From positions 1 to 29,171 of the forward strand of contig CAJWCD010000029.1 in the NCBI GenBank assembly GCA_913020725.1: a stretch of DNA of 29,171 nt. Direction: 5' to 3'. The notes beneath the pieces were generated by a model, which was given only the letters and a program-made list of their open reading frames with translations, did no database searches and had not been told where the DNA came from. The position numbers and the translations under genes are program-made. Numbering within the stretch: the first letter of the stretch is position 1; the number at the start of each line of letters is the position of its first letter. This DNA is from an uncultured Pseudomonadota bacterium (GTDB lineage Bacteria; SAR324; NAC60-12). Of the stretch, positions 1 to 27,246 are shown piece by piece.

Positions 1-446
1 CCATGATCCACTGAGGCGACCAGTGCGGCTTCGAGTAGTGCGGCCTGACTTTGACCGTAGCCCGAAATCGCGCAGTACACCAATTGCGGATTGACCTGCT
101 TGAGCATTTCAAAGCCAAGTCCAAGCCGGTCCATCACTCCGGGGCGAAAGTTTTCCACCACCACATCCGCCGTGCCTACGAGCTTCCGGAAAAGCACTCG
201 ACCCTCCTCATGCTTGAGATTGAGGGTGAGCGAACGCTTGCCCGCATTCTGTGCCAGAAAAGAGGTTCCCATTAGGCGCTCATTCAACTCCAAGTCTGCC
301 CCCAGCTGACGTGCAAGATCCCCCCGCTCCGGAACCTCCACCTTAATCACCTCAGCCCCCAAATGCACCAATTGATGGCAGCAGAACGGCCCTGCCAGCA
401 CATTGGTCAAGTCTAGGATCCTGATGTGTTCAAGCGGCTTTACCAT
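1..446 (-). CDS. Family III CoA-transferase (CaiB/BaiF), runs off the left edge; possibly a pseudogene
   Basis: Manual translation from ATG at 446: MVKPLEHIRILDLTNVLAGPFCCHQLVHLGAEVIKVEVPERGDLAR...NAGKRSLTLNLK...ADVVVENFRPGVMDRLGLG...NPQLVYCAISGYGQ, the classic CaiB N-terminal motifs. Not in the ORF track because it has no stop in the window. Sequence departs from the family pattern after GYGQ. Confidence 0.9.
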   Translation of the reverse strand, partial: MVKPLEHIRILDLTNVLAGPFCCHQLVHLGAEVIKVEVPERGDLARQLGADLELNERLMGTSFLAQNAGKRSLTLNLKHEEGRVLFRKLVGTADVVVENFRPGVMDRLGLGFEMLKQVNPQLVYCAISGYGQSQAALLEAALVASVDH

Positions 447-521
447 ATCTAGACCTTACCGCAAGTGATCGTGCGAATCGAGGCTGATTTTTTCGGGCAC
501 GGCAGCAGCAGCAAGGAACAC

Positions 522-560
522 GGTGGCCGCTTTGGATTGCACTTGGCGGCCACCTTTGTA
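522..560. other. GC-rich inverted repeat in a divergent intergenic region (terminator-like hairpin)
   Basis: GGTGGCCGC (522-530) and GCGGCCACC (546-554) form a perfect 9-bp stem with a 15-nt loop, followed by TTTGTA. Confidence 0.4.
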
Positions 561-644
561 CAATCACTGGGGGTGCGATACTGCGCAAAGCGAGGGTAAG
601 AACAGCAGCGCGGCCCTAGTGGTGACGCTGCGGAGCGAGGTTTC

Positions 645-681
645 TTGACAAAACGCAGGGACCCTGATTGATTAAATCAGG
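645..681 (+). promoter_or_regulatory. Putative sigma70 -35 element with an overlapping palindrome upstream of the OmpA-domain gene
   Basis: Perfect TTGACA at 645-650; dyad CCTGATT-N5-AATCAGG at 663-681 overlaps the expected -10 region. The -10 itself is not convincing. Confidence 0.35.
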
Positions 682-749
682 AAAATCCGTATCCTAAAAA
701 ATGAGGAAGGCTCAGGGAATTTATCCAACACCTTTGAAGAGGGAATCAG

Positions 750-2615
750 ATGATGAAGAATCAGTCCATCATTTTCTTGCTGTTTTTGAGTTTCACATTG
801 CTGCCCTCAGCGGAGGCCAGTGAGTGGTTTCCGGTGCCGCAGTTCATGAGCGAATCCGAAATCGCAAAAGTGTATCAGGACGCTGTCCGGAGCCAGATCA
901 TTGAGCAAAAGGGAGTGCGCAACTCCAGTGGCAGTTCCGGATTAGAACTGAACTGGTTGAAACAAGTCGCGCAGTCGGAGCGTGAGTGGCAGATGAACTT
1001 GCAGGAGTTGGAACGCGGCTACCGCCGAGCCCTCAGCGAGGTGATCCTGCGCCAGACGGAACATCAATCGCGGCTGGTGTTGGTCAGTCAGTATGACAAT
1101 CGCATTGCCACACTGGAAGCGGAAATCCGGGAACTGGAGGTGCGGAGTCGGCAGGTCGCGGGCGACCGCCAGCGCTACGAGCAGGGACTGGACAATCTCC
1201 CCTTGGCGATGGTGGCGGTGGTCAAGGCGCTCTACACGGAAGAACTCGCGGCGCGGCTCAAGGAGAGCGGGTACGAGGATTCTATCTTCCGCAAGGCCGG
1301 AGAGATCGCACTGACCGTCATGCTGGAAGCGTATTCCACACAAAGCGAAATCCCCTTTCGGCAGGGAGGAACCCGCGTGAGCTTTCTCTATCCGGAGAAC
1401 ATCTCACGCTTCGACGAGTCCGCGAACGAGTACGTTTACCTGTTCCCCATCATCGAGATCAACCCGTTCGCGGAGCAGAAGTGGGCACAAACCGATGAAA
1501 TGCCGGGAGTGACGTTCCAGTCCTTCATCTCGCTGGAACAGGCACAGGCTTATCTCCAGCAGGAGCAGGTGGGTGATGCACGACTGACCGAGTGGATTGA
1601 GGCAGAACTGAGCACGTTGCAGGCGAACAATGAGCATGTGCTGCAAACCATCAACGGCGCCTTGCGGCACTACAGTACCTTCCGGGAAGGCTTGGCCAGC
1701 GAGATCGGCTTGTTGCAGGCACAGATCGGCAAGTTGCAGGTCAAGCGCAACGAACTTTCCGGGAAGGAGGCGCTGTCGCAGAGCTTAGCCGCACTGGAGC
1801 AGATTCGTCAGGACTATCGCAGGCATTACGAGCAGCGGGTGCTGTTGGGGTACGAGGAGTATACGATGGAGTTCGATGTGATGTTCAGCGGCAGTTCGCC
1901 GGAGCCGCGTCCCCGGAAAACTCGTGCAAGTGGGGAGGATCAGGGCTTGATGGTACGCTCGCAGGAAGTCGTCAACGTTCCGGTCAGCGGACGACCCCTC
2001 AAGGACATCTACGCCGACATGATCCTCTCGGCCAATGGCAAGGCCTCCGAGCCGCCACTGATTCCGGAAACGTGGGTGATCCGTGTGAAAGCCGAGGATG
2101 AGGCCAGCGAGTTGTTGCAGGGGAAGTTGCGTTGGGGCATTGATCGCGAGGAATTTCAACTGCTGCAACTCAGCCGCCGCAGCATCGGTTCCCGCACCCA
2201 GTACCGGATTGCCGTCGCCAAGCGGATGCATCTGCTCTCAGAGGAAAACTTCCCGCCGTCACAAGCGGGAGTGTGTGAGTTCACCGTGTTTTTCCAGCCA
2301 GGCAATTTGAAGCTCAACAAAAACTCTCGTCAGGTGATCAACGAAAACACGGAGTGCCTGCTCAAGTATCCCAAGCAGTTGGTGGAACTCACGGGGCACA
2401 CAGACGGAAACGGGAAAATCAAGAAGGGCGACAACTATGTGAAGCAGGGGATCGTGCAAGCGACCGCTGTGATGGACTACCTCGTGTCGCAGGGTTTTGA
2501 TCCGGATCGCATTATTCTAGCGAGCAAGGGGGCGAGTATGATTCCAAATGGTTCCGAAACCTCTGATCCGAACAGTTTGCATCGGGTGGAGGTGATTTCC
2601 CGTCCGGAGATTTAG
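750..2615 (+). CDS. Exported coiled-coil protein with a C-terminal OmpA-like domain
   Basis: N-terminal signal peptide (hydrophobic stretch then AEA), two long heptad-rich helical segments, and a C-terminal VFFQPG...ELTGHTDG...AVMDYLVSQGFDPDRI...RVEV OmpA_C pattern; purine-rich RBS (GAGGGA). Confidence 0.8.
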   Translation: MMKNQSIIFLLFLSFTLLPSAEASEWFPVPQFMSESEIAKVYQDAVRSQIIEQKGVRNSSGSSGLELNWLKQVAQSEREWQMNLQELERGYRRALSEVILRQTEHQSRLVLVSQYDNRIATLEAEIRELEVRSRQVAGDRQRYEQGLDNLPLAMVAVVKALYTEELAARLKESGYEDSIFRKAGEIALTVMLEAYSTQSEIPFRQGGTRVSFLYPENISRFDESANEYVYLFPIIEINPFAEQKWAQTDEMPGVTFQSFISLEQAQAYLQQEQVGDARLTEWIEAELSTLQANNEHVLQTINGALRHYSTFREGLASEIGLLQAQIGKLQVKRNELSGKEALSQSLAALEQIRQDYRRHYEQRVLLGYEEYTMEFDVMFSGSSPEPRPRKTRASGEDQGLMVRSQEVVNVPVSGRPLKDIYADMILSANGKASEPPLIPETWVIRVKAEDEASELLQGKLRWGIDREEFQLLQLSRRSIGSRTQYRIAVAKRMHLLSEENFPPSQAGVCEFTVFFQPGNLKLNKNSRQVINENTECLLKYPKQLVELTGHTDGNGKIKKGDNYVKQGIVQATAVMDYLVSQGFDPDRIILASKGASMIPNGSETSDPNSLHRVEVISRPEI

Positions 2616-2625
2616 CGGGAGTTGC

Positions 2626-4281
2626 TCACTCGCGCTGCGGCCCGGACAGCGGTTCCGGGTGGTAGTGGCGGAGCAGGTAGAGCAGGGCCTTGCCCAGCAC
2701 CTTGCGGCTGTCGCCAGGCATGACGAGGCTGGAGACCGAACCGAGCTTGAGCGCTTCCTCCGGATTGAGCAGTTCGCGCTCGTAGCGGGTGCTCAACTCG
2801 GCGAGCGCAGCGTCGCGCTCGCTGGTGGAATCGGCTTCCGGAACTCCTTCTTTAAGCCGCTGTTGGTGGTCTGAGAAGATTTGGCGGTACTCGTCTTTGT
2901 AAACGAACTGCCGACCCGCCGGTCCCATCACGGCAATCCGCGCACTGGGCAGGGCGAACACAAAATCCGCGCCGATGTGGTAGCTGTTCCACGCGCAGTA
3001 GGCACCGCCGAAAGCGTTGCGGACGATGAGCGTGATGCGCGGCACCCGTAGGTCCACGATGGCGTCCAGCAGTTCCCGACCCGCCTGCACGATTCCTGCC
3101 TGCTCCTGTTCCGATCCGGGAGCGTAGCCACTGACATCCTCCAAGAAAACCAGCGGAATGTTGTAGAGGTTGCAGAAGCGGATGAACTTTGCGCCCTTGC
3201 GTGAGGCGTGGACATTGATGTTGCCGGAATCGAAGGCGCTGTTGTTGGCGATGAAACCGCAGACGTGTCCTCCCAAACGCCCGAAGGCGGTGGTGAGCTG
3301 GCGGGCGCGTCCGGGTTGCACCTCGAAATAATCCCCGTAATCGGCAATCTGCTGAAGCAGCAAACGCATGTCGAAGGGGGTGTTGAACTCGGAAGCAGGA
3401 TGGGTGAAGGTCTTGCGCAACAGGATGGCCTCCTCTGCCATGCAGTCGTCCAGTGACAGGGAAGTCTGGCGGAAAGGGGCGAGGCTGTGGTTGTTGTCCG
3501 GAAGGTAGCTCAAGAGGCGCAGCGCCATGCGCAACGCTCCTAATTCGTCCGGAGCCGTGAGATCGACCACGCCGCTTTGGCTGTGAACCTTGGGACCGCC
3601 GAGCTCGTCCGGAGTGATGTCCTCGCCCAAGGCATGGCGCACAACATCCGGGCCTGTCAGTCCGAAGAAGGTGTTTTCAGGTTGGATCAGAAAGGAGCCT
3701 TGCCGGGGCAGGTACGCTCCTCCTCCGGCATTGTAACCGAACATGAGCATGATCGAGGGCACCACGCCGCTGATCTTGCGCATGGCGCAGAAGGCCTCCG
3801 AGTAGCCGTCCAGCCCGCCGACTCCTGCAGGCACGAAGGCGCCAGCGGAATCGTTCATGCCGATGAGCGGGATGCCGTGTTCTCCGGCCAGCAAAATTAA
3901 GCGGGCGAGTTTGTTGCCGTTGGTCGCGTCCATCGCTCCGGCACGAACTGTGAAATCGTGTCCGTAGAGGGCGACATCACGTCCTGCGATGTTGAGGATG
4001 CCCGTGACAATTCCGGCACCATCGAGCTGCGCCCCCCAGTTCTGGAAGGTGATCTGCGGCTCGTGTTGCGTGAGAACCCGGATGCGCTCCCACACCGTCA
4101 TGCGTTCCTTGCTGTGTTGAATACGAATCCGTTTGGAACCGCCGCCTTGCTTGGGTTTGGCGATCAGTTCCTCTGCACGGTCCAGCATGTGGTCGTAACG
4201 GGAACGGTTCGATTCTCCGGAGGTGTTGGTTCCCGGAGCGAGCGGATTGTCGAGGGTGAGCAAGGCTGACATGAGTTTCAC
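2626..4281 (-). CDS. Acyl-CoA carboxylase carboxyltransferase (beta) subunit, PccB/AccD-like
   Basis: Motifs [40 protein letters not shown]...[33 protein letters not shown]. Start is GTG 4281 or ATG 4272. Confidence 0.92.
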
Positions 4282-4409
4282 AATGAGCGAGATGGTCTGA
4301 AAAGACCGGACATTCGTAATTTACGAAAAACCACTCGAAGGGCAAGCCGAACCTCTCAGCAAGGCAGAAGGCACCGCTCACTGGCCACCAGCAACCGACA
4401 ACCAGTAAG

Positions 4410-5330
4410 ATGCGTATTGTGTTCATGGGCACTCCGGAGTGGGCGATTCCTACTTTGCGGGTGCTGGTCGAGTCAGGAAATCCGGTCGTGGGCGTGTTCA
4501 CCCAGCCGGATCGCCCGGTGGGCCGCAAGCAACTCCTGAAACCGTCGCCCGTCCGGGAGTGGTCGGAAGCTCAGGGTTTGCGTGTTTGGACTCCGGAGCA
4601 AGCCAGCAGCCCGGAGACGCTGGAAACTCTGAGCGACCTGAAACCGGAGGTGGTGCTGGTCTGTGCTTATGGGCAACTGCTCTCCCAAGCGCTTCTCGAA
4701 CTGCCTTGGCTGGGATGCTTCAATCTGCATTTCTCGCTGCTCCCACGCTGGCGTGGAGCGAGTCCGGTGCAGGCTGCCATTCTCGCAGGGGATCCGATCA
4801 CTGGAGTTGCCCTCCAGAAAATGGTACTGAAGCTTGATGCCGGGCCGCTTTTGTGTGTTTCTGATTCGGTTCCGGTGACTCCGGAAGACACGAGCGAAAT
4901 GCTGGGAGCGCGCCTTGCGGAACTCGGAGCCAAACTTGTGCAAGTCGCATTGCCCCGCTTTGCTGCGGATACACTTGCTTTGACCCCGCAGGACGAATCC
5001 GCAGTGACGAACTGTCGCATCATCCGCAAGTCCCAAGGAGGGATCGACTGGTGTCATGAAAGCGCTGAGCAGATCGAACGCAAGCTGCGGGCCTACACCC
5101 CGTGGCCTGGAATCCATTGTTTCACGCCCAAGGGCAAACGTCTGCAGCTGGTGGAAGTGAAGGTTGTACTAGGCAGTTTTGAACCCGGACAAGTGTATCC
5201 GGAACTGCTGATCGGCACCAAGGCAGGAGGGTTGCGTGTTTTGCAACTCAAACCCGAAGGACGTGGGGTGATGATGGCTGAAGCCTTTCTGCGAGGACAT
5301 CCGGAGTTGCTTGGAGCAACCCTGCCCTAA
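4410..5330 (+). CDS. fmt: Methionyl-tRNA formyltransferase
   Basis: MRIVFMGTPE, VFTQPDRPVGR, CAYGQLL, NLHFSLLPRWRGASP, LDAGP, RAYTPWPG. Confidence 0.97.
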   Translation: MRIVFMGTPEWAIPTLRVLVESGNPVVGVFTQPDRPVGRKQLLKPSPVREWSEAQGLRVWTPEQASSPETLETLSDLKPEVVLVCAYGQLLSQALLELPWLGCFNLHFSLLPRWRGASPVQAAILAGDPITGVALQKMVLKLDAGPLLCVSDSVPVTPEDTSEMLGARLAELGAKLVQVALPRFAADTLALTPQDESAVTNCRIIRKSQGGIDWCHESAEQIERKLRAYTPWPGIHCFTPKGKRLQLVEVKVVLGSFEPGQVYPELLIGTKAGGLRVLQLKPEGRGVMMAEAFLRGHPELLGATLP

Positions 5331-5356
5331 ACGCAATGTTTTGTGGGGATCTGGGC

Positions 5357-5385
5357 TTGTGGTTTAGGGAAATTTCCATTAAAGT
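5357..5385 (+). promoter_or_regulatory. Putative sigma70 promoter for the WecA-like gene
   Basis: TTGTGG (5357-5362), 17-nt spacer, TAAAGT (5380-5385), in an AT-rich gap upstream of an AAGGA RBS and ATG 5414. Confidence 0.4.
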
Positions 5386-5413
5386 TTGAGGAAATCAATC
5401 GGTCAAGGAATTC

Positions 5414-6904
5414 ATGCAATCTGAGTTCAAACTCTACGCAGGCGGGTTTTTGCTGGCGTTGTTGGTCAGCAGCACACTAGTGTTGATGGTGCTGCACCGC
5501 TTGAGCCGCGTCTTGCAATCTCGCAGACAGCAATCCCTCCGGGATCAACGTGTCGAGCCAGTACCCCGCTTTGGGGGCATTGGGATTGCCGGTGGGTTTG
5601 TTGCAGTGCTGCTGTTGCTGGCGTTCGTGCCGCTCAAAGCAAAAGGCATTGACCTGCGCACCCTGCTGGGCGGAAACCTCGGAGTGGTTTTGCTCGGAGG
5701 AAGCGCTGCCTGCCTGCTGGGGTTCTGGGATGACTTGTTCGTCATTCGCGCTCGTTACAAGTTTGCTGGGCAGGTTGGAATTGCCCTGCTGACGGTGGTT
5801 TATGGACCCGTTGTTGAGTCCGTTAATCTACCGTTTTTCGGGACGCAAATTTCCTTGGGGGCGCTGGCGATTCCCCTGACGATGCTCTGGATTGTTGGAT
5901 TGATGAACGCTATCAATTTGGTTGATGGCATCGATGGTCTGGCGGGGGGCATTGCGATAGTTGCGGTGGGCTTCATGGCCATCATTGCTGGCATCTGGAA
6001 CCATCCGGAGTGGGTGTTGGTGTGCTTGGTGTTGTGCGGGGCGACTCTGGGTTTTTGGGTTTTTAACAAACCAACCGCCGCTATTTTCATGGGGGATTCC
6101 GGCAGCATGTTGCTGGGATACCTGCTGGCGGTACTCGCTTTGGAGGTCGCACGGGTTCCTCAAACAGGCGTCGTCCATTTGGCTCCTGTCGTGATTCTGG
6201 CAATCCCGATTTTGGATACGGTTTTTGCGTTGTTCCGACGCTACCTCAAGGGGATTCCCTTTTATTCCGCCGACCGGGATCATCTGCACCACCGTTTGCT
6301 GCAACGCGGCCTGAGACCCTGGCAGGCGTTGACCGTGTTGCTGGGGCTGGGCACGCTGTTTGGCGGGCTGGGCGTTGGCATGCTCCTGCGTCCGGAGTGG
6401 CAAGGGTATTTTGTGCTGGCTGCCCTCGGATTGGCCTACATGACCTTGTACTTGTTGGAGTATGAGGTTGTCCTGAATCTAGTGAAGCACCTCCGAGATC
6501 AACCGGATTTGCGCCGCCGCCGTAGCCTGATGGTCCACCTCGCGGAGGACATTGACCTTTTTTTGAGCAAGGACCGCACTCGGCAGGACTTGCTCCAGAG
6601 CTATGCGTTTTGGCTGTCCTTGGCCGGAATTGATCGTTTTGAACTCTTGCACCAAGGTCGGCGTCTCCACCCGCGCTCGACAGAGGAGTCTCGTACAACA
6701 AGCTTTCGGGAGCTGGTCTTTCGTGAGGAAGAATACGAGATTCACCTCGCTCTTGATGAAGCCACCGTGAGGCTTGACTCGGACGTTAAAGGGGAACTGC
6801 TGGATCGTGTGACCCACGAGTTGTTGCGCCAGTTCTCTCAGCGTCAAGAACCTGTCGGACGCCCCGCTTTGCAGGTGCTGGAATCTTCCCGCAACTTTCA
6901 CTAA
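5414..6904 (+). CDS. MraY/WecA (TagO) family undecaprenyl-phosphate sugar-1-phosphate transferase with a soluble C-terminal extension
   Basis: VPRFGGIGI, LGFWDD, NAINLVDGIDGLA, IFMGDSGS, PILDT, ADRDHLHH (WecA-type) and multiple TM helices. Confidence 0.92.
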   Translation: MQSEFKLYAGGFLLALLVSSTLVLMVLHRLSRVLQSRRQQSLRDQRVEPVPRFGGIGIAGGFVAVLLLLAFVPLKAKGIDLRTLLGGNLGVVLLGGSAACLLGFWDDLFVIRARYKFAGQVGIALLTVVYGPVVESVNLPFFGTQISLGALAIPLTMLWIVGLMNAINLVDGIDGLAGGIAIVAVGFMAIIAGIWNHPEWVLVCLVLCGATLGFWVFNKPTAAIFMGDSGSMLLGYLLAVLALEVARVPQTGVVHLAPVVILAIPILDTVFALFRRYLKGIPFYSADRDHLHHRLLQRGLRPWQALTVLLGLGTLFGGLGVGMLLRPEWQGYFVLAALGLAYMTLYLLEYEVVLNLVKHLRDQPDLRRRRSLMVHLAEDIDLFLSKDRTRQDLLQSYAFWLSLAGIDRFELLHQGRRLHPRSTEESRTTSFRELVFREEEYEIHLALDEATVRLDSDVKGELLDRVTHELLRQFSQRQEPVGRPALQVLESSRNFH

Positions 6905-6937
6905 CTTTCGCTCCGACGGCCCCATCGGAATTGGCAC

Positions 6938-8311: not shown

Positions 8312-8381
8312 TGTGGCACCAAGGCGTGAGGTGTGCTAAACTTGTAAACCCTACCACTACTTCGCATCATTCGCTATCCCT

Positions 8382-9575
8382 GTGTTGTCTGCAAAGCCGG
8401 AAACTCCGGAAATCTGGATTCGCCAAAAAGCCGAGGAACTTGGTTTTGGTTTGGTTGGATTTGCCAAGGTCGCCCCCAGCCGAACCATTGGGATTTATCA
8501 GGATTGGCTCCGTCAGGGTTATGCCGGAGCAATGGAATATTTGGAGCGGCATGCCGAGCTCAAGGAAGATCCCCGGCACTTGCTTCCGGAAGCGCAAACC
8601 CTCATTGCTCTCGGAATGCACTACCAAACCGTTGATCCGGACCTAGTGCAGTCCGACAATCCAGCGTTGGGGCGGGTGAGCCGTTACGCGTGGGGGGATG
8701 ACTACCATGAGGTCATCCGGGCTAAGCTCCGAGAACTGTCCGACGGCATTCAGCAGGAATTTCGGATCGGTGACGGGCAGCAGCGCCCGTGTGTGGACAC
8801 CGGCCCGCTGCTTGAGCGCGAGTTCGCGCATCATGCCGGGTTGGGCTGGTTTGGCAAGCACTCCAACCTCATTCATTGGCCACAGGGTTCATGGTTTTTC
8901 CTCGCGGAGCTGCTCGTGGATTTCCCACTGACTCCGGATGCCCCTTTCACGCGAGTGGATTGTGGTTCCTGCACCCGTTGCATTGCAGCGTGTCCCACTG
9001 ATGCGATTGTCGCAGACCGCACTGTGGACGCACGCCGCTGCATTTCCTACCTCACCATCGAATTGAAAGAAGCGATTCCTCAGGAACTCCGGACTCGAAT
9101 GGGCAACTGGATTTTCGGGTGCGACATCTGCCAAGAAGTCTGCCCGTGGAATCGGAACACTCCCAGGACTTCCGAGCCTGCGTTCCAGCCGCGCTCAGGA
9201 TTCCAGCATCCGGAACTTGTCGAGTGGATGGGAATGACTCAGGATGAGTTCAGTCGTCGTTTCCGGAAAAGCCCGCTCAAGCGGGCCAAGCGGCGTGGGT
9301 TGCTGCGCAATATCGCAGTGGCACTGGGAAACTGGGGCAGTCCAGAAGCAATCCCGGCACTGGGAAAGGGGTTGCGGGATCCGGAATCGCTCGTTCGGCA
9401 ACACGCCGCTTGGGCACTCGGACGGATTGCTGCTCCGGAATCACAACGCCTGTTGCGGCACTCGCTTGTTTCAGAAACAGACAAGGATGTGCGCCGTGAA
9501 ATTCGGGACGCATTGGACCGGCATGAAAGTGCGAATCGCATTGACTCCATAAGCGATTTCTCAGATAATCATTAG
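8382..9575 (+). CDS. queG: tRNA epoxyqueuosine(34) reductase QueG
   Basis: SRYAWGDDYH, VDTGPLLER, GLGWFGK, CGSCTRCIAACPT, CISYLTIE, GCDICQEVCPWN, C-terminal HEAT-like repeat. Confidence 0.96.
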   Translation: MLSAKPETPEIWIRQKAEELGFGLVGFAKVAPSRTIGIYQDWLRQGYAGAMEYLERHAELKEDPRHLLPEAQTLIALGMHYQTVDPDLVQSDNPALGRVSRYAWGDDYHEVIRAKLRELSDGIQQEFRIGDGQQRPCVDTGPLLEREFAHHAGLGWFGKHSNLIHWPQGSWFFLAELLVDFPLTPDAPFTRVDCGSCTRCIAACPTDAIVADRTVDARRCISYLTIELKEAIPQELRTRMGNWIFGCDICQEVCPWNRNTPRTSEPAFQPRSGFQHPELVEWMGMTQDEFSRRFRKSPLKRAKRRGLLRNIAVALGNWGSPEAIPALGKGLRDPESLVRQHAAWALGRIAAPESQRLLRHSLVSETDKDVRREIRDALDRHESANRIDSISDFSDNH

Positions 9576-9651: not shown

Positions 9652-11643
9652 GTGACTGAAACAGAAATCAGCAACACGGTCATCGAACCGTTTATCTTCT
9701 TTGAAGAAGACGAGGATTTTGACGCGTTTTATGAAGAAAGCCTCCTAGGCGTCAAAGAACAGGACATCGTCAAGGGCACGGTAACGGACACCACCAAGGA
9801 GTGGGTCACCATCGACATCGGCTTCAAATCCGACTGCCTCGTCCCGACGACCGAGTTCCTGAACGAAGAGGGAGTGGTTGCGGCGGACATCGGTGAAATT
9901 TTTGAAGTCTTCGTTGAGGCGCTGGAAGACGACGATGGAGTCACCATTGTTTCCAAGCGCAAGGCCGAGAAGATGCGAACGTGGGAGAAGGTTGGCGAAA
10001 TCTTCGAGCAAGAGGGCACCGTCAACGGCACCATCAACGCTCGTGTCAAGGGCGGCATGCAGGTGGACATCGGGGTCAAGGCGTTCCTGCCGGGATCACA
10101 GGTGGACCTGCGGCCCGTCCGCAATCTCGACCAACTCTTGGGCGAGGCCTTTGAATTCAAGATCCTCAAGTACAACCGCAAGCGCGGCAACATCGTGCTT
10201 TCTCGGCGGGTGTTGCTGGAGGCCGAGCGCGAGGAGAAGCGCAAAGAAACTCTCAAGGTTCTCAAGGAAGGCTCGCTCATCGTGGGCAGTGTCAAGAACA
10301 TCACCGACTACGGGGTCTTTGTGGACTTGGGCGGAGTCGATGGCTTGCTCCACATCACCGACATGACGTGGGGGCGCATTGTCCACCCCTCGGAGATGTT
10401 CAACATCAGCGATGAGGTCGAGGTCGTGATCCTCAAGTACTACCCGGAAGAGCAGAAGGTTTCGCTCGGCTACAAGCAGAAGTTTACAAACCCATGGGAT
10501 CAGGTTGCCGACAAGTACGAACCCGGCAGCAAGATCACAGGCAAGATCGTCAGCCTGACCGACTACGGTGCGTTCATCGAGCTGGAACCGGGGGTCGAGG
10601 GCTTGATCCACGTCTCTGAGATGTCATGGACGAAGAAGGTGCGGCATCCGTCCAAGATCGTCCAGCTTGGCCAAGAGGTCGAGGCGATCGTCAAGGATTT
10701 GGACGTCGAGCGCAAGCGTATCTCGCTCTCGATGAAGGAAGCCGAGCCTAACCCGTGGCGGCTCGCCTTGGATCGCTACCCGGTGGGCTCCATTGTCATG
10801 GGGCGAGTCCGGAACATCACCGATTTTGGGGTCTTCATCGGACTCGACGAGGGCATTGACGGGTTGGTCCACATTTCAGACATCTCGTGGTCCCAGCGGC
10901 TTTGCAAACCCTCCGAGTTGGCTAAGAAGGGTGAGGAGATCGAGGTCAAGGTTTTGAACATCGACGTTTCGCAAGAACGCCTCTCGCTGGGGGTCAAGCA
11001 ACTCATCGGGGATCCGTGGAAGGATTTGGATGAGAAGTACCCGATCCGCTCTGAGGTGACGGGAACCATCGTGAACATCACGGACTTCGGTATCTTCGTT
11101 GAGGTTGAGGAAGGGGTTGAGGGATTGGTCCATATCTCCGAGGTTGATTCTTCGATTCCGAAAGCCAAGATCCCGGAGTTCTATCCGGTCAACACCGAGG
11201 TTCATGCTCGTGTGATCAAGGTGGATCTGGAGGAACGCCGCTTGGGCCTGAGCATCTTGGGGGTGGTTGCAGTCGAATCTCCGCTTGAGGACTCGGAGCA
11301 AGACGCAGAAGCAACTCCGGAAACCGAGGAAACTCCTGCTGAAACGGAAACTGCTCAGGCAGTAGAGGTTGAGGCTGCTCCGGAAGTGGAAGAAGCTGCT
11401 CCAGAGGTGGAAGCCACTGAGGCTGCTCCGGAAGTGGAAGAAACTGTTCCAGAGGCGGAAGCCGCTGAGGTTGCTCCGGAAGTGGAAGAAACTGCTCCAG
11501 AGGCGGAAGCCACTGAGGCTGCTCCGGAAGCAAAGGAGGAAAAACCCAAGAAGGTGGCCCCTAAGAAGACTGCCTCCAAGAAGACGACCAGCAAGGCGAA
11601 GAAAGCTGACGACGAGCAGCTCGCCGGCTCCTCCGAGGAGTAA
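9652..11643 (+). CDS. rpsA: 30S ribosomal protein S1 with an acidic repeat and basic tail
   Basis: Six S1 repeats (DIGFKSD, AFLPGSQVD, ITDYGVFVDLGGVDGLLHITD, LTDYGAFIE, ITDFGVFI, ITDFGIFV). Start placed at in-frame GTG 9652 after the AAAGGA RBS; the ORF track start is 9628. Confidence 0.97.
   Translation: MTETEISNTVIEPFIFFEEDEDFDAFYEESLLGVKEQDIVKGTVTDTTKEWVTIDIGFKSDCLVPTTEFLNEEGVVAADIGEIFEVFVEALEDDDGVTIVSKRKAEKMRTWEKVGEIFEQEGTVNGTINARVKGGMQVDIGVKAFLPGSQVDLRPVRNLDQLLGEAFEFKILKYNRKRGNIVLSRRVLLEAEREEKRKETLKVLKEGSLIVGSVKNITDYGVFVDLGGVDGLLHITDMTWGRIVHPSEMFNISDEVEVVILKYYPEEQKVSLGYKQKFTNPWDQVADKYEPGSKITGKIVSLTDYGAFIELEPGVEGLIHVSEMSWTKKVRHPSKIVQLGQEVEAIVKDLDVERKRISLSMKEAEPNPWRLALDRYPVGSIVMGRVRNITDFGVFIGLDEGIDGLVHISDISWSQRLCKPSELAKKGEEIEVKVLNIDVSQERLSLGVKQLIGDPWKDLDEKYPIRSEVTGTIVNITDFGIFVEVEEGVEGLVHISEVDSSIPKAKIPEFYPVNTEVHARVIKVDLEERRLGLSILGVVAVESPLEDSEQDAEATPETEETPAETETAQAVEVEAAPEVEEAAPEVEATEAAPEVEETVPEAEAAEVAPEVEETAPEAEATEAAPEAKEEKPKKVAPKKTASKKTTSKAKKADDEQLAGSSEE
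11371..11531 (+). repeat. 48-bp tandem repeat (3 full copies plus a partial) encoding EAAPEVEETAPEAEAT
   Basis: Units at 11371-11418, 11419-11466, 11467-11514 and a partial 11515-11531, differing by only a few bases. Confidence 0.95.
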
Positions 11644-13474: not shown

Positions 13475-13506
13475 TTGTGAATCTAGCAGAAAATGCCATG
13501 CTAGAT
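13475..13506 (+). promoter_or_regulatory. Putative ahcY promoter overlapped by a perfect inverted repeat (candidate operator)
   Basis: TTGTGA at 13475-13480; ATCTAGCA (13481-13488)-N10-TGCTAGAT (13499-13506). Confidence 0.45.
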
Positions 13507-13575
13507 CGTTTAATCCGCCCGACGGGAAATCCCGGATTTGGGCGCGAATTTTTTCGCCAAAAAAAGGACAACCTC

Positions 13576-14895
13576 ATGAACGATTTTGCTTCCAGCGCTC
13601 GCGCCGACCACAAGGTGGCGGACCGCTCCCTCGCCGATTTGGGCCGCAAGAAAATCACCCTTGCCGAAAACGAGATGCCGGGCCTGATGGCCCTCCGCGA
13701 GGAGTATGGCGAGAGCAAGCCCTTGACGGGTTCCCGGATTACGGGGTCACTACACATGACGGTGGAAACGGCGGTACTGATTGAGACATTGACGGCGCTG
13801 GGGGCCGAACTGCGGTGGTCCTCATGCAACATCTTCTCCACACAGGACGAAGCGGCGGCGGCGATTGCAGCTACGGGAGTTCCAGTCTTCGCATGGAAGG
13901 GTGAGACCGAGGAAGAGTACTGGTGGTGCATCGAGCAAACCTTGCAATGGCCCGGAGGTCAGGGGCCGAACCTGTTGCTTGACGACGGCGGCGATCTCAC
14001 AGGCTACGTCCATGAGAAGCACCCGGAACTGCTTGCGGAAATTCGGGGCGTTTCTGAAGAGACCACCACTGGGGTCCATCGGTTGCATCAAATGATGCAG
14101 CAGGGGACGCTGAAACTGCCTGCGTTCAATGTCAACGACTCGGTCACGAAGAGCAAGTTTGACAACCTCTACGGCTGCCGTGAATCGCTGCTGGACGGCA
14201 TCAAGCGGGCAACCGATGTGATGCTCGCAGGCAAGCTCGCGGTGGTTGCGGGCTACGGGGATGTCGGCAAGGGATCGGCAGAATCACTCCGGGGGCCAGG
14301 AGCGCGGGTGGTTGTCACCGAGATTGATCCGATCTGTGCCCTGCAAGCCGCGATGGCGGGCTACGAGGTTCGTCCGATGGCCGAGGTTGCCCCTCTTGCA
14401 GACCTCTTCGTCACCACGACGGGTTGCTGCGGGGTCATCCGCCGCGAGCATTTGGACGTAATGAAGGACAACGCGATTGTCTGCAACATCGGACATTTCG
14501 ACATCGAGATTGACGTGGCTTCAATCAACAACGACCCGAACATCGAGCGCATCAACATCAAGCCGCAGGTGGATCAGTACGTCTGGCCGGACGGCAAGCG
14601 CATCCTGCTGCTGGCCGAAGGTCGGCTGGTGAACTTGGGCTGTGCGACTGGGCATCCGGCGTTTGTGATGTCCAACAGCTTCTGCAATCAGGTGCTGGCG
14701 CAGCTTGACCTCTGGGCGAATGGCAACGACTACGGGAATCAGGTCTATGTGCTGCCAAAATTGCTGGACGAGAAGGTGGCAATGCTGCACCTTCAGAAAC
14801 TCGGTGTGAAGTTGGAACGGCTCACTGCGCAACAAGCGGAGTACACTGGGATTCCCGCTGAGGGGCCGTACAAGCCCGAACATTACCGCTACTGA
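13576..14895 (+). CDS. ahcY: Adenosylhomocysteinase (SAH hydrolase)
   Basis: [96 protein letters not shown]. Start at ATG 13576 after AAAGGA. Confidence 0.98.
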
Positions 14896-19438: not shown

Positions 19439-19550
19439 GGTCCATAAAATTTCGTATAGAACGCACCACCTCAGTGATGCTATGGTGTTTGGATGACAAA
19501 GATTCTTCAGCTTACGGTTTCTTGTCGCAAACCACACGCCGATTCACGAC

Positions 19551-20192: not shown

Positions 20193-20193
20193 T

Positions 20194-21374: not shown

Positions 21375-21550
21375 TTACAACCAGCAGAGAATGAAAATCA
21401 AACATAACAGCATGGCAATTCCAGGAATACAGGACAAGACGAAGCCATCCAGCGGCTGGCCACGCTCGCTGGTGAACGGTGTCCTTTACACCAGCCAATG
21501 GCTGCGTTAGCCTGTTCCAGAAACAATGCAACAAAATGGAGAATCGCATT

Positions 21551-23857
21551 ATGGATGGAGTGGTAGCAAGTGAACTGGTTGGAGCCGCGTGGCCTGCGGT
21601 GCAGCCCGGAAGCGATCCCGTGCTGTACGGTCATGTCTCGCTGGACCCCGTTGGTGCGTTCGAGGCCCGCAGCCTTCAGACCTTCCGGCTGGTGTACACG
21701 GTGGGCCGCTACGGGATTGATGACACCGGCAGCATCCGTGTGGTCTTCCGCTTCATGGGAGACTGGGGGGCGTTTCAAACCAACAATCCCAGCGGTTACA
21801 ACTACGTCACAGCCGATGCGAGTACAGGAGCGCGGTTGTCCCTGAACTACGCCAACACTGGACATCAGCGTCCGTGGTTCAAATCCCTCACCGTTAGTCT
21901 GCACGGCGGCTATCTTAGCGAGGGGGACACAATCACCATCGTTTTTGGCGACACCTCACAGGGGTCTCCGGGCATGAAGATGCAGACCTTCTGCGAACCG
22001 GGATTCGAATTCAAAGTGCTGGCGGATGTCTGCGCGGTCGGGCACTACTATCCCCTTGCTGAAACACCCCATATTGCCATTGTACCCGGAGAAGTGCATG
22101 ATTGGAAAGCGGTGCTGCCATCTCTGCGACTTCCCGGAGAGGTATTCCGGTTCGGACTCAAAGCAGAGGACAAGTGGGGAAATCCGACCGATCAAGCCTC
22201 CGCATGTTTCCTGCTCCGCAGCAGTCATCCGGTAAATGGTTTGCCGGAAACCCTCGATTATCCGCTCGGCGAAAAATCGATTATCCTTGATGATCTTTCG
22301 ATGGAGGAACCCGGAATTTTACGGATACAGGTTTTAGACGAATCCGGAAGGTGCGTGTCCGAAGCAGGACCACTGTTGATCCGGGATGGTGAATTTTCAG
22401 GTTACTGGGGCGATCTGCACGGACAGAGCGGCGAATCGATCGGACTCACCACCTCGCGGGATTATTTTGAATTTGCGCGCAACAAATCCTTTCTGGATGT
22501 CACCGGCCACCAGGCCAACGATTTTCAAGTCAACAATGCCTTCTGGAAATACCTCAACGAACTCACCGCGGAATTTCACGAAGACGGTCGTTTTGTCGTT
22601 TTTCCGGGATACGAATGGTCGGGCAACACGGCGGTTGGCGGCGACCGTAACGTCTTTTTCCGGACTGAAGGCCGCCAGATTCGGCGTTCATCGCACGCCT
22701 TGTTGGAGGATCGCTCAGACCTTGACACTGATGCGTCCTCAGCAGCCCAGCTTTTTGAAGATTTGCAGGGAGAGGACTGTGTGGTGTACGCGCATGTTGG
22801 AGGACGCTATGCCGACATCATGCAGGCGCACGATTCCCGGCTGGAAACCGCAATGGAAATCCATTCGGCGTGGGGTACCTTTGAGTGGATGCTGACCGAC
22901 GGCTTTCCCCTCGGTCATCGTTCGGGAGTGGTGTGCAACAGCGACGGACACAAGGGTCGACCCGGAGCCAGTTATCCGGGGGCCTCAACCTTTGGAGCCT
23001 ACGGCGGGTTGACCTGCTTCCTCACCAAAGACCTGACGCGGGACGGCATTTTCGAGTGTCTGCGGCGACGGCATCACTATGGCACCACCGGCTGCCGGAT
23101 GCACATGGAAGTGGCAGTTCAGTTTGACGAAGACGCAACGGTTTTCGAGCGCGACCCCAACGCCTTTCCTGACACCAAGCGGTCAGCCTCCCGCGAGGTG
23201 ATGATGGGCGACATCGTGCAAAGCTCCGCCAGCGAAGCCACGCTCAAGCTCAACGTCCTCGCCCATTCGCCCATCGAGCGCATTGAAATCCGCAACGGCA
23301 CAGAGGTGCTGGAAACCTTCCGGCCCTACGCCGCCACCGATTTGGGAAATCGCATCCGCGTGATCTGGAGTGGGGCCGAGTATCGTGGACGCGGGCGTCA
23401 GAGCACTTGGACTGGACGGGCGGTTTTCAAAGGATGCCGCATCGAACGCTTGGCCAAGATCAACGCTTGGAACCATGAGCGGCGACTGGAACGGTGTAGC
23501 CGAGACACCGTGGAGTGGGACGCGATCACTACGGGGAATTTCGGCGGCTTCGATGTGTGGCTGGAAGAGGGTGCAGCAGCCGAGTTGGACGTAACCACCA
23601 ATCGCGGAGCCATCCGGAAACCGCTGGAAACCATTGGACTGGAAGACACCGTGCTGGAAGCAGGTGGGCTGGAGCGGCGGCTCCGTGTATTCCGGCTCCC
23701 AGAGGAAAACCCGCACCGCGAAGTGGAACATCAACTTCGAATTTCCCTCAAGCCGGAAGGAGACAACCCGCTCTGGATTTGCGTGACCAGCGAGGACGGT
23801 TTTCAGGCGTGGAGCAGTCCGGTGTTTGTGTATCGGAAGCCTTTCGAAGCCTTATGA
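21551..23857 (+). CDS. DUF3604-type PHP-fold metallohydrolase
   Basis: WGDLHGQSGES, HQANDF, PGYEWSG, GDRNV, AHVGG, EIHSAWG, NSDGHKGRPG, LTRDGIFECLRRRHHYGTTG, AWSSPVF. Start at ATG 21551 (GGAGA RBS) or ATG 21536. Confidence 0.8.
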   Translation: MDGVVASELVGAAWPAVQPGSDPVLYGHVSLDPVGAFEARSLQTFRLVYTVGRYGIDDTGSIRVVFRFMGDWGAFQTNNPSGYNYVTADASTGARLSLNYANTGHQRPWFKSLTVSLHGGYLSEGDTITIVFGDTSQGSPGMKMQTFCEPGFEFKVLADVCAVGHYYPLAETPHIAIVPGEVHDWKAVLPSLRLPGEVFRFGLKAEDKWGNPTDQASACFLLRSSHPVNGLPETLDYPLGEKSIILDDLSMEEPGILRIQVLDESGRCVSEAGPLLIRDGEFSGYWGDLHGQSGESIGLTTSRDYFEFARNKSFLDVTGHQANDFQVNNAFWKYLNELTAEFHEDGRFVVFPGYEWSGNTAVGGDRNVFFRTEGRQIRRSSHALLEDRSDLDTDASSAAQLFEDLQGEDCVVYAHVGGRYADIMQAHDSRLETAMEIHSAWGTFEWMLTDGFPLGHRSGVVCNSDGHKGRPGASYPGASTFGAYGGLTCFLTKDLTRDGIFECLRRRHHYGTTGCRMHMEVAVQFDEDATVFERDPNAFPDTKRSASREVMMGDIVQSSASEATLKLNVLAHSPIERIEIRNGTEVLETFRPYAATDLGNRIRVIWSGAEYRGRGRQSTWTGRAVFKGCRIERLAKINAWNHERRLERCSRDTVEWDAITTGNFGGFDVWLEEGAAAELDVTTNRGAIRKPLETIGLEDTVLEAGGLERRLRVFRLPEENPHREVEHQLRISLKPEGDNPLWICVTSEDGFQAWSSPVFVYRKPFEAL

Positions 23858-25008
23858 AAGCTCCACTTGAGGGTATCCGAGTCCTTGATCTGTCGCGGTT
23901 GGTTGCTGGAAATGTCTTGACCGCCCAGCTTGCCGATTTCGGTGCTGACGTGATAAAAATTGAGCGTCCAGGATGGGGTGACGACCTGCGGCACTGGCGG
24001 GATGAGGGCATTGAAACATGGTGGAAGGTTTACGGACGCAACAAGCGCAGCCTCTCGCTGAACCTCAAAGATGCGGAATCCTTGGCTCAACTGAAGGCGT
24101 TGATTCCCCTCAGTGATGTCCTTGTGGAGAACTTTGTTCCGGGAAAGCTGGAGGCGATGGGGCTGGGGGTTCCGGTACTGCACGGCCTCAACCCACGGTT
24201 GGTGATCGCCCGGGTCAGCGGCTGGGGGCAAACCGGGCCTTACGCGCACAAGCCTGGTTTCGGCACCTTGGTCGAGGCCATGTCCGGCTTTGCACACCTG
24301 AACGGGTTTGCTGACCGTGAACCGGTGCTGCCCCCACTGGCAATGGCCGACATGTATGCCGGGATTTACGGAGCTTTTGGAGTGCTGGCCGCTCTCCGCA
24401 ACGTCGAACACGGCGATGGCAAGGGGCAGGTTGTGGACGTGGCACTGTTTGAAAGCCTCTACTCCACGCTGGCCTCTGAGGCTGTCAAGCTTGAGGCCAC
24501 GGGTGCGTGCAGCATGCGGATGGGAAATCAGGCGGTCAACACCGCTCCGCGCAACGTGTACGCCTGTGCTGATGGACGCTATCTGGCACTGTCGGCCTCT
24601 GTGCAGTCCATGTTCGAACGCCTGGCACGAACCATTGGACGACCGGAGTTGATTGAGGACGAGCGCTTTGTGAGCAACGAGAACCGTGTGATAAACTGTG
24701 ACACACTCAATGCGATTCTGTCCGAGTATTTTGGGGCGAGGTCGCTGGACGAAAATCTGGAGTTGATGGACGCGGCAGGCGTGACGGTGGGGCCAGTGTT
24801 GTCCGCCGCAGACTTGGTCGGGCATCCCTATGCGGAAGGACGGGGATTGTTCACAAGAACCGAGGATGCCCAACTGGGCACCTGCCCCATTCCCAACCCA
24901 GTGCCGAGACTGTCCCGTACTCCGGGAGTGCGCCCTCGTCCAGCGCCACAGCAGGGTGAACACACTGAAGCCATTTTGCAACTGATCCGAACGAGCGATG
25001 AAACTTGA
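23854..25008 (+). CDS. Family III CoA-transferase (CaiB/BaiF)
   Basis: PLEGIRVLDLSRLVAG, DFGADVIKIE, RNKRSL, ENFVPG, SGWGQTGPY, the presumed catalytic Asp in LAMADMYAG, GQVVDVAL; ATGA overlap with the upstream stop. Confidence 0.95.
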   Translation: MKAPLEGIRVLDLSRLVAGNVLTAQLADFGADVIKIERPGWGDDLRHWRDEGIETWWKVYGRNKRSLSLNLKDAESLAQLKALIPLSDVLVENFVPGKLEAMGLGVPVLHGLNPRLVIARVSGWGQTGPYAHKPGFGTLVEAMSGFAHLNGFADREPVLPPLAMADMYAGIYGAFGVLAALRNVEHGDGKGQVVDVALFESLYSTLASEAVKLEATGACSMRMGNQAVNTAPRNVYACADGRYLALSASVQSMFERLARTIGRPELIEDERFVSNENRVINCDTLNAILSEYFGARSLDENLELMDAAGVTVGPVLSAADLVGHPYAEGRGLFTRTEDAQLGTCPIPNPVPRLSRTPGVRPRPAPQQGEHTEAILQLIRTSDET

Positions 25009-25876
25009 TCCTGACTTGTGCCGGTCGCTCCTGTTTGTCCCGGCAGGCAACGAGCGCTTTTTAAGCAGTGCCCTGCGGGGAGGTGCGGATGTCATCCAAC
25101 TCGATCTTGAGGATGCCATCGCCCCCGGCCAGAAACAGGCCGCCCGCCGGCACGCCCGTACAGAATTGGAGCAGGTTGCGGCGGCGGGCCGTGCTGTTTC
25201 GGTGCGGGTGAACGTAGAAATCGCGTTGCTCTCTGACGATTTGGACGCGGTGGTGCGCCCAGGGTTGTCCGCTCTAACTATTCCCAAGGTGGAGACTGTC
25301 GAGATGCTGGAGGCCATTGACCAGCAGGTCACCAAGCTGGAGGCCGAAGGCGGGATGTCCAGTGGCGAGGTCCAACTGATCGCGCAGATTGAATCGGCGA
25401 AAGGCGTTCTGAATGTGCGTGAGATCGCACATGCCACTCCCCGGTTGGTGGCCTTGGGCATTGGCATGGAGGATTTGATCGCCGATGTCGGGGGCACGGT
25501 CGGCCCGGATGCCCTCTACTTTCCGGCGATGCAGTCGTTGTACGCCGCCCGAGAGGCCGGGTTGACCCCAATCGGATACCTTGGCTCCATCACGGTGTAC
25601 AAGGACACCGAGCAGTTCCGGGAGTGGATTGTGCGGGCCAAGAACTTGGGGTTTGCCGGAGGCTTCTGCATTCATCCCAATCAGGTGGAAATCCTCAATG
25701 AAGCCTTCCGGCCAACACCGGACGAGGTCGCTGCCGCCCAAGCGGTTGTGGACGCAGCGGAACAACACGCCCAGGATGGCATCGGCGCTTTCTCCCACAA
25801 CGGGAAAATGGTGGATGCTCCTATCGTTGAACGGGCACAGCGCGTACTGCGCCTGCACGAGACCCATTCCCGTTGA
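24998..25876 (+). CDS. CitE/HpcH-HpaI family acyl-CoA lyase (citryl/malyl/citramalyl-CoA lyase-like)
   Basis: RSLLFVPA, DLEDAIAP, VRVN, PKVE, QIESAKG, GMED, CIHPNQV, GKMVDAP; overlaps the upstream gene. Confidence 0.93.
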   Translation: MKLDPDLCRSLLFVPAGNERFLSSALRGGADVIQLDLEDAIAPGQKQAARRHARTELEQVAAAGRAVSVRVNVEIALLSDDLDAVVRPGLSALTIPKVETVEMLEAIDQQVTKLEAEGGMSSGEVQLIAQIESAKGVLNVREIAHATPRLVALGIGMEDLIADVGGTVGPDALYFPAMQSLYAAREAGLTPIGYLGSITVYKDTEQFREWIVRAKNLGFAGGFCIHPNQVEILNEAFRPTPDEVAAAQAVVDAAEQHAQDGIGAFSHNGKMVDAPIVERAQRVLRLHETHSR

Positions 25877-25913
25877 GGGCTTGTTCGCTCCAGACGCCTT
25901 TTTCACCTCACCC

Positions 25914-26225
25914 TTGACCCTGAAGAAGCTGAAGCCAAGTATTGAGAAAATCGAGGTTTTTGTGCTGACCGGGCCGAATGAGCAGCGTCCCCATTGGGTG
26001 AGCCACTTCATCGTCCCTACCGCCAACGAACTGTTGGTGCGACTTCGCACCAACGAGGGGGTGGAGGGCTTTGGGCTGGCCACTTGCTACACGGACATCA
26101 AGCCAGTCCTCAAGGTGATTCAGTCTGGAATCACCGAAGTGATTGTGGGGCAAAACCCACTTGCACCCGAACACCTGTACCGCACGATCATGGACCTGAC
26201 CTCAAAGCGACTGGCTCACGAAAAA
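25914..26225 (+). pseudogene. Mandelate racemase/muconate lactonising enzyme family, N-terminal fragment only
   Basis: KPSIEKIEVFVL...ELLVRLRTNEGVEGFG...VIVGQNPLAPEHLY is the enolase-superfamily capping domain. The frame then runs into the antisense of the next gene with no AvDiAlWD motif or TIM barrel, and there is no clear ATG or RBS. Confidence 0.75.
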
Positions 26226-26238
26226 AGCTCATGCCGGG

Positions 26239-27246
26239 TCAGCTACAAAATGCCCGGATTTTATCCAACAGGGGTTCCGCCACGTCTACGCCTTCAGACT
26301 CGATGCGCTGACGGTTACTTTTGCGGCGGTCTCCGGGAAGCCGCGCCCCGTCCTGATTCCGGATGGCGGCAGTCAACGCTGCGATGCACTCGGCAAAAGC
26401 GGCTCCGGCGAAGGCATTGGGGTCGAGCGCAAGGAAGCACTGTCCGGTTTTTGGAGGCCCCCCGGTGGTGCCGGAAAACGGGCTCGCGTCTTTGCCGAGT
26501 GTTGCACCGCTGAGGGCTGCGGCCAGTACTTCCACCAGCAGTCCGGTGCCGAAGCCCTTGTAGCCACCGCTGGGGGCCATGCTGCCCTTGAGCGCAACTT
26601 CCGGATCGGCAGTGGGCTGCCCCTCGGAATCGAGTGCCCAGCCTTCCGGAATCGCGTGGCCCTCGCGGGCGCGCATCATGATCTCGCTTTTGGCCACCAC
26701 GCTCGCGCTCTGGTCCAGCACAAAGGCTGCGCCTCCGGAAGAATCCGGAACGGCGAGAGCAAAAGGATTGGTACCGATCACGGGGGTTTTGCCGCCCACA
26801 GGCGCGATCGATGCGGGTGCATTGGTGAAGCCGAGGCCGACCAGTCCGGACTCCGCAAGGCGTTCGACGTGATAGCCCAGTACCCCGCAGTTGTAGGAGT
26901 TGCGAATCGTCATTCCGGCACAGCCGTTCGCTTGGGCCAAGGGTTGCAGTTGCAGAAACCCGGCATCGATCGCCGGGTGCGCGAATCCGGTTTTGGCGTC
27001 CACCTGCAACGCCGAGGCACGGGACTGCGTGACCTCCGGAACTGCCGTGCCGTCCACCTTGCCGCAGCGCACATGCTCGCAGTAGGTGGGAACGTACATC
27101 AGGCCGTGGCTGCGGATGCCGTCACGCTCGGCGGCCCGCACGGCCCGGGCCAGCGATTGCGCGGATTCCGGGCAGGTACCCGCGCCCACCAGAGCGTCGG
27201 TCGCCAGTTGTTCCACGTCTTCCAAACTCAAATGCTGGATGTTCAT
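26239..27246 (-). CDS. Ldh_2 family oxidoreductase (malate/L-lactate/sulfolactate dehydrogenase, ComC-like)
   Basis: AERDGIRSHGL, VDAKTGFAHPA, IRNSYNCGVLG, FTNAPA, GTNPFA, DQSASVVAK, IPEGWALD, GGYKGFG, RLPGDR. Confidence 0.92.
   Translation of the reverse strand: MNIQHLSLEDVEQLATDALVGAGTCPESAQSLARAVRAAERDGIRSHGLMYVPTYCEHVRCGKVDGTAVPEVTQSRASALQVDAKTGFAHPAIDAGFLQLQPLAQANGCAGMTIRNSYNCGVLGYHVERLAESGLVGLGFTNAPASIAPVGGKTPVIGTNPFALAVPDSSGGAAFVLDQSASVVAKSEIMMRAREGHAIPEGWALDSEGQPTADPEVALKGSMAPSGGYKGFGTGLLVEVLAAALSGATLGKDASPFSGTTGGPPKTGQCFLALDPNAFAGAAFAECIAALTAAIRNQDGARLPGDRRKSNRQRIESEGVDVAEPLLDKIRAFCS

Follow-up and report, generated by a model that had tools for sequence, protein, structure and literature searches.

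TCCGGA in SAR324 genomes: an iterated palindrome with a helical spacing rule of lineage-dependent sign

The stretch of DNA analysed here, called the window throughout, is the 29,171-nt contig CAJWCD010000029.1 of an uncultured bacterium from the SAR324 clade, and the element under study is the palindromic hexamer TCCGGA, which an initial annotation had described as a genome signature resembling the highly iterated palindrome HIP1 of cyanobacteria. The window contains 67 copies, the first at 185 and the last at 27035, all at the places given by that annotation, where about nine would be expected by chance at a GC content of 56.8%. Thirty-five of them lie in the first 9.6 kb, in which A follows 35 of the 62 occurrences of TCCGG; the sister palindrome ACCGGT is rare, with a single occurrence, and the three codon-frame examples (936, 9262 and 11379) agree with the called open reading frames (ORFs). 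The pattern is real and not an artefact, extends over the whole genome and obeys a rotational rule whose sign depends on the lineage. The features of the window are as follows, a strand being given where one applies.

185..27040: 67 scattered TCCGGA palindromes (2.3/kb), a local sample of the genome-wide set
886..941: an off-phase pair of sites at a distance of 50 bp (4.8 turns), the copy at 936 lying in the Ser-Gly frame
3497..3613: three sites, the spacings being 51 bp (4.9 turns) and 60 bp (5.7 turns), inside a carboxyltransferase-like ORF (2626-4281, reverse strand)
8382..9575, forward strand: the site-densest ORF, with 9 TCCGGA
11379..11528, forward strand: four sites, each 48 bp from the next (4.57 turns, opposite face), in the Ala-Pro-Glu frame, within the Glu/Ala/Pro repeat tail of a ribosomal protein S1-like ORF
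13477..14895, forward strand: an ORF with 0 TCCGGA
26600..27040: a six-site cluster with spacings of 45, 89, 10, 101 and 190 bp
27041..29171: the contig end, free of sites, with short, foreign-looking ORFs

The ORF at 8382..9575, which we take to be QueG-like, carries two of the scarce pairs spaced by nearly whole turns (9209/9262, 53 bp, and 9380/9434, 54 bp), and the cluster at 26600..27040 includes a 10-bp pair, which has the only near-integer spacing to escape the genome-wide exclusion. The site-free ORF at 13477..14895 is presumably adenosylhomocysteinase-like. The end of the ribosomal protein S1-like ORF (11300-11640) consists of a 16-residue Glu/Ala/Pro repeat (48 bp) followed by a Lys-rich tail, and one sequencing run carries a 21-base insertion at 11544. 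Within the site-free contig end, the short ORF 27798-28316 has a helix-turn-helix look at its N-terminus and, to our eye, resembles phage terminase small subunits. Ahead of that end, the short ORF 25994-26311, which adjoins a dehydrogenase-like ORF (26239-27246, reverse strand), presumably corresponds to the start of a mandelate-racemase-family gene that ends early.

The excess is not confined to the window. In the genome from which it derives (G000; 3.45 Mb in 204 contigs, 93% complete) TCCGGA is the commonest hexamer, with 7,675 sites or 2.23/kb, amounting to 7.35, 6.51, 3.37 and 2.43 times the expectation of Markov models of order 0, 1, 2 and 3, while the second-ranked palindrome reaches 2.6 times at order 0. 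Its density is even over the contigs, with a median of 2.25/kb (5th-95th percentile 1.2-3.0) and 2.30 for the window contig. The comparison to HIP1 drawn in the initial annotation is borne out in that the signature is genome-wide, occurs in every frame, is conserved and is common to a clade of relatives.

That annotation had also proposed tests against codon-based and maximal-order nulls, and the hexamer stands out from the first kind only. On our own gene calls, which put 2.70 Mb into genes of at least 450 nt, TCCGGA occurs at 3.45 times the level of within-gene synonymous shuffles (3.76, 1.93 and 4.29 times by frame). In both of the frames to which a dicodon null applies, it likewise exceeds that null (3455 vs 2430, 1.42 times, and 1076 vs 746, 1.44 times). 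It occupies 3455 of 7336, 1966 of 6122 and 1076 of 6380 protein-allowed places in the respective frames (47%, 32% and 17%), and outside called genes 919 copies compare with 152 expected. Under the maximal-order model (TCCGG x CCGGA / CCGG), the ratio is 0.997, formally the outcome that the annotation had named as speaking against its claim. The maximal-order outlier is instead the half-site TCCGG (1.56 times, z 117); TCCGGA makes up half of all TCCGG, and this null consists largely of TCCGGA itself. The ratio ranks fourth among 64 palindromes, whose median is 0.60. The word is enriched in genomes at 42% as well as at 60% GC, and the observed-to-expected ratio (O/E) stays at 2.9-4.1 across all gene codon-bias classes, with a slight drop by starts and stops.

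Most 6-bp palindromes are strongly avoided in G000 (CCGCGG, CTCGAG and GGGCCC at 0.14, 0.17 and 0.17 of maximal order), an avoidance that coexists with almost no DNA methyltransferases found. The most depleted pentamer is CCAGG/CCTGG, at 0.21 times maximal order and 0.13-0.19 times the synonymous shuffle. Depletion of CCWGG, seen over the whole of G000 and in samples of G001, G002 and G007, appears in genus g1, to which G000 belongs (0.16-0.39), and in G007 (0.19), not in genera g2, g5 and g12; the g1 genomes yielded no C5 methyltransferase.

A further regularity concerns the distances between sites. Pairs two to five helical turns apart are nearly absent in G000, with 6 at 20-22 bp, 6 at 31-33 bp, 5 at 42-43 bp and 4 at 52-53 bp, distant pairs numbering 19 per distance. 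Within genes the 10.5-bp amplitude is 0.38, compared with 0.055±0.030 in a frame-keeping null whose maximum among 300 was 0.155, and a damped fit of the spacing puts the period at 10.49±0.04 bp with minima at whole turns and a decay of about 51 bp. When the count is restricted to pairs that the protein sequence permits, the joint occupancy falls to 0.12, 0.17 and 0.21 at turns 2, 3 and 4; pooling of 18-69 bp gives 0.34 for the same face, 1.24 for the opposite face and 1.06 for far pairs. Since the gaps lie at distances belonging to different frames, protein helicity is not their source. At closer range, spacings of 9-10 bp occur often (37 and 22 pairs) and spacings of 12-13 bp seldom (4 and 1), which lies off the 10.5-bp rule.

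Phased with TCCGGA in G000 are the motif itself, TCCGGG/CCCGGA (-0.34), words that overlap it and, weakly, some one-off variants (-0.11 to -0.14); a correlation of all words with the motif yielded no further one. Sorted by type of change, the one-off variants have phase amplitudes of -0.34/-0.14/-0.11 for transitions and -0.12/+0.04/-0.02 for transversions, while 42 other YYYRRR hexamers (+0.015, z 1.0), double-transition variants and A/T words or tracts are not phased with it. These signals thus define, independently of abundance, a graded recognition spectrum with the consensus TCCGGA > TCCGGG/CCCGGA > other one-off variants. One-off words correspond to the motif in a congener in 5 of 313 cases when in phase with a shared site and in 40 of 700 when out of phase (p=0.003). 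A separate, weak 10.6-bp signal is seen in the AA/TT autocorrelation of G000 and G013 (amplitude 0.010-0.013), peaking 3-4 bp off whole turns.

The initial annotation had left it to be seen whether orthologous sites are conserved or turn over, and in pairwise comparisons of G000 with two congeners they appeared conserved. In the alignment with G002 (221 kb, 89% identical), TCCGGA persists at 364 of 536 sites where 244 were expected, which makes it the best-kept of 517 hexamers, and its terminal T/A shows 39 changes at four-fold sites instead of the 102 expected. Each of the three alternative first bases is paired with T in the congener above background (31 vs 8.7, 8 vs 1.9 and 2 vs 0.8). Only 19 kb could be aligned three-way, so that gains and losses of sites are unpolarised. 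Variant calls on four contig-only runs place none of the 40 variants listed (119 in total) inside a TCCGGA site, with fewer than one expected, and are thus uninformative.

An excess of 4-9 times order 0 was found in genera g1, g2, g12 and g5 (samples of G001, G002, G003, G006, G013 and G014), which in a one-gene tree branch with g1 and g2 as sisters (99/99), followed by g12 (86/78) and g5 (91/84). None of the nine g3 genomes has an excess, their counts being near those of a control word, and in a second family it is weak or absent. Three g12 members (G035, G043 and G044) carry 0.12-0.16 sites/kb vs 0.9-2.1 in most congeners, an apparent loss of the signature seen in bins that are 51-57% complete.

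The same rule recurs in these relatives with either sign. Pairs were counted over whole genomes in same-face (42-44 and 52-54 bp) and opposite-face (47-49 and 57-59 bp) bins in 36 of the 45 family genomes, omitting the nine of g3 (at most 2 pairs per bin); the sign was taken from four 3-bp bins each in G031 and G048 and from six in G014. Same-face pairs are the rarer in g1 (same-/opposite-face 41/150 in G000, 35/91 and 4/63) and in G014 (64/110), and the commoner in G031 (114/34), G006 (73/15, with 26 same-face pairs expected at random), G048 (204/128) and G003 (132/87). In g12, all 13 genomes with at least 34 pairs have a ratio above 1 (1.5-4.4), 11 of them with p<0.05, and the pooled counts are 784/379 where random placement gives 424 each. 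Significant biases of either sign range from 1.5- to 14-fold, and the sign tracks neither site density nor GC. Phase amplitudes in sequence samples have matching signs, at +0.40 in G006, +0.17 in G013, +0.04 in G003, -0.23 in G002 and -0.53 in G001 (standard errors 0.06-0.08); for G006 and G001 the sign is the same with loci containing N left out (18 of 26 and 11 of 20 kept) and with all loci (+0.40 and -0.53, standard error 0.07). As a control, GATC in Escherichia coli shows no bias (291/299 at 42-44/47-49 bp), and GATC pairs of cyanobacterial plasmids (29/27 and 6/9) are too few and not specific to HIP1.

Taken together, we lean towards the view that TCCGGA is a conserved, helically phased site kept by selection to bind an abundant bending or bridging protein, and helical-phase spacing lends support to the protein-binding mark that the initial annotation had listed among its options. 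A dimeric protein would bind the word and bend or bridge the DNA, and bound neighbours within about eight turns would interact according to the helix face occupied. Single sites would be beneficial. In g1 and G014, a second site on the same face would be harmful or bring no extra benefit, through an additive bend, an over-stable loop or occlusion; with the same-face floor so near to neutral background, a penalty and a missing benefit are not distinguishable. In g12, G006, G003 and G048, same-face pairs would bind cooperatively and be favoured. To judge from what was not found in the genome, the site may be read unmethylated. A bolder and distinctly more tentative proposal is that a SAR324 clade organises its whole chromosome via a methylation-independent, sequence-specific architectural protein of no described family, predicted to bind thousands of TCCGGA, whose pairing geometry would have switched between same-face cooperation and exclusion at least twice, as recorded in the spacing of synonymous codons.

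Several observations weigh against such a selected binding site. Conservation is weaker relative to G001 (296 kb, 83% identical; 261 of 693 sites kept vs 171, rank 15 of 904), where TCCGGA is eroding to CCCGGA (144 exchanges vs 46). Second-position four-fold sites are hardly conserved beyond expectation (13 vs 21.5 with G002, 46 vs 43 with G001), and there is no suppression of inner C/T exchange (41 vs 33). As these comparisons are pairwise and unpolarised, selection is not separable in them from local protection against mutation. Among motif-rich genomes or bins, phase is missing in G016 (21/22), in G003 at 31-33/36-38 bp (42/44) and in G013 at 52-54/57-59 bp (15/19); G056 (19/10, not significant) and G034 (4/8) do not fit clearly either, and the weak G013 sample has its best period near 11.5. 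Related genomes share pairs, and the family therefore amounts to a few independent lineages, not 36. One-turn pairs (9-10 bp) escape the exclusion, perhaps by a second, adjacent binding mode. As for the reader, no binding protein was identified among the candidates searched: the histone fold profile PF00808, the only histone profile used, was over its cut-off in none of five genomes, and HU/IHF is present in three copies in G000 and likewise in the motif-poor g3 genomes G004 and G015. There is one weak Lrp-family match. A ranking by codon bias, tried to shortlist abundant DNA-binding proteins, collapsed onto GC content at third codon positions (GC3) and was uninformative.

The word could also have arisen by a neutral ratchet of the type proposed by Elhai, in which methylation- or binding-directed mismatch repair turns near-matches into TCCGGA and shields existing copies, the phase arising where a bound repair complex blocks or aids action at nearby sites. 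The half-sites are multiplicative, as the maximal-order ratio of 0.997 implies and as would follow from two rounds of flank-biased fixation (accessible parts of PMC4390886), MutS and MutL are present in G000, and the same-face floor (0.12-0.21) is near neutral background. We nevertheless consider this unlikely. Neither Vsr nor a fitting methyltransferase was found in G000, nor MutH in any of five genomes; the sites are conserved instead of turning over, an argument for selection in the part of PMC5861425 consulted; and same-face pairs above random expectation (784 vs 424 in g12, 73 vs 26 in G006) require a positive interaction.

Much the same low probability attaches to a methylated mark, in which TCCGGA would be modified by a methyltransferase so far unrecognised, and its methylated or hemimethylated pairs would be bound by phase behind the replication fork by an oligomeric, SeqA-like reader. 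SeqA favours same-face GATC pairs less than about 50 bp apart (accessible parts of PMC2912659 and PMC2691817), which matches the range and sign in g12 and G006, but it leaves E. coli GATC pairs unbiased at 42-49 bp. As for the writer, the suggestion of methylation-directed repair in the initial annotation found no support: C5 methyltransferases (PF00145) were found in none of the three g1 genomes, G000 included, and in 12 of 31 relatives irrespective of motif level, and E. coli Dam and SeqA gave no tblastn or phmmer match in G000, where the MutL and Rpe controls did. One PF02384 (N6_Mtase) gene of G000 is cut by a contig end, and PF01555 and PF02086 match a single orphan:

L001:514-2253, reverse strand: orphan methyltransferase-like gene G000:C49, of PF01555/PF01170 type

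This orphan stands beside an undecaprenyl-diphosphatase-like gene. Its N-terminal tail is long and rich in Arg, Glu and Asp, its C-terminal end carries tandem repeats, and the product resembles amino-DNA-methyltransferases and Trm11-like RNA enzymes alike. It is conserved in 33 of 45 family genomes, which would suit a writer, but it does not track the motif: seven of the nine motif-poor g3 genomes have it, the motif-rich G031, G041 and G046 yielded no copy (74-87% complete; G031 87%), and its PPY motif has degenerated in motif-rich G006, as in G005 and G008, and is intact in g3. We therefore rejected it as the writer of a TCCGGA mark on its distribution and the decay of its catalytic motif, and it is probably not what gave rise to the word. 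In the accessible parts of the supplements of PMC8919816 and PMC9516812, 'SAR324' has no match and TCCGGA no motif row; three deltaproteobacterial bins there, whose lineage is not resolved, have 0 methylated motifs.

It is improbable that TCCGGA serves as a signal for self-recognition or DNA uptake, as proposed for HIP1, in which case two sites would be bound together by the machinery of uptake or recombination. Low-GC3, probably foreign genes are poorer in the word (O/E 2.2-2.6 vs 3.5), and HIP1 is reported to boost transformation in a way that depends on methylation (part of PMC13756078 consulted), yet an uptake drive alone predicts neither same-face exclusion nor a change of sign. We give still less credit to intrinsic DNA mechanics, with TCCGGA as a flexible kink and genomes selecting for or against additive curvature in the absence of a specific reader: the period is that of B-DNA and transitions are better tolerated than transversions, but the other YYYRRR hexamers and double-transition variants are unphased, A/T tracts are not locked, and the mechanics of one DNA word cannot be opposite between sister genomes. 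Finally, a by-product of codon usage and restriction-site avoidance of other CCGG palindromes is hardly credible, for although most 6-bp palindromes and CCWGG are avoided and the maximal-order ratio is 1, TCCGGA exceeds the synonymous and dicodon nulls and its expectation outside genes, is enriched alike at low and high GC, and could not thereby acquire spacing gaps across frames.

Returning to the selected binding site, TCCGGA is an iterated palindrome with a rotational rule of lineage-dependent sign, and an independent HIP-like word with so strong a rule points to a physical reader. Sister genomes of opposite sign, together with genomes lacking the excess, should make that reader findable by phylogenetic profiling. 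The data also indicate that a DNA-level code can claim a third of the available synonymous choices in an abundant ocean lineage. To our knowledge HIP1 has been without a mechanism for three decades, and the same spacing test is applicable to HIP1 chromosomes.

Among known systems, restriction-modification enzymes that recognise TCCGGA include Kpn2I, BspEI and AccIII, and related enzymes of the CCGG family bridge two sites. Their targets are normally depleted, unlike a word that is the commonest hexamer and for which no cognate methyltransferase was found in G000. The very-short-patch signature of Dcm/Vsr does not apply to G000, in which neither a C5 methyltransferase nor Vsr was found, and histone-type wrapping finds no counterpart in the PF00808 searches or in the phase of A/T words. 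The openly readable literature yielded no paper on an excess of TCCGGA, or on palindromes in phase, in SAR324. The Dam/SeqA/MutH system of E. coli is closer, since it too involves a short palindrome, helical-face pairs and a range of about 50 bp (accessible parts of PMC2912659 and PMC2691817), the binding at TCCGGA being putative and deduced from sequence. It differs in that the Dam, SeqA and MutH genes were not found, in that the sign in G000 is opposite to the same-face preference of SeqA, and in that GATC has no genome-wide bias at 42-49 bp in E. coli whereas the bias of TCCGGA, in the significant cases, is 1.5- to 14-fold and of either sign. The 10-11 bp dinucleotide periodicity described in the accessible part of PMC7537859 is similarly a helical-period pattern that is under selection and lineage-dependent; here, by contrast, a single hexamer shows near-total gaps, with an amplitude of 0.3-0.5 compared with 0.013 for AA/TT in G000.

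The nearest relatives are HIP1 (GCGATCGC) and the alternate HIPs. According to the accessible parts of PMC4390886 and PMC5861425, HIP densities range from 500 to 2500 per Mb, and TCCGGA resembles these words as a GC-rich palindrome present at about 2/kb in all frames and conserved, with partly functional one-off variants and a clade-limited distribution with losses. It differs from HIP1 in phylum and word, in an excess of 7-fold compared with 15-300-fold for HIPs, in that no cognate methyltransferase was found for it in the 93% complete G000, and in its period of 10.5 bp compared with the 18-94 kb periods of HIP1 (accessible part of PMC5861425, in which the word 'helical' is absent), the longest G000 contig being 93 kb. 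TCCGGA is not a maximal-order outlier as HIPs are, but it shares with them the outlier abundance, the independence of frame and the conservation by which such words are recognised.

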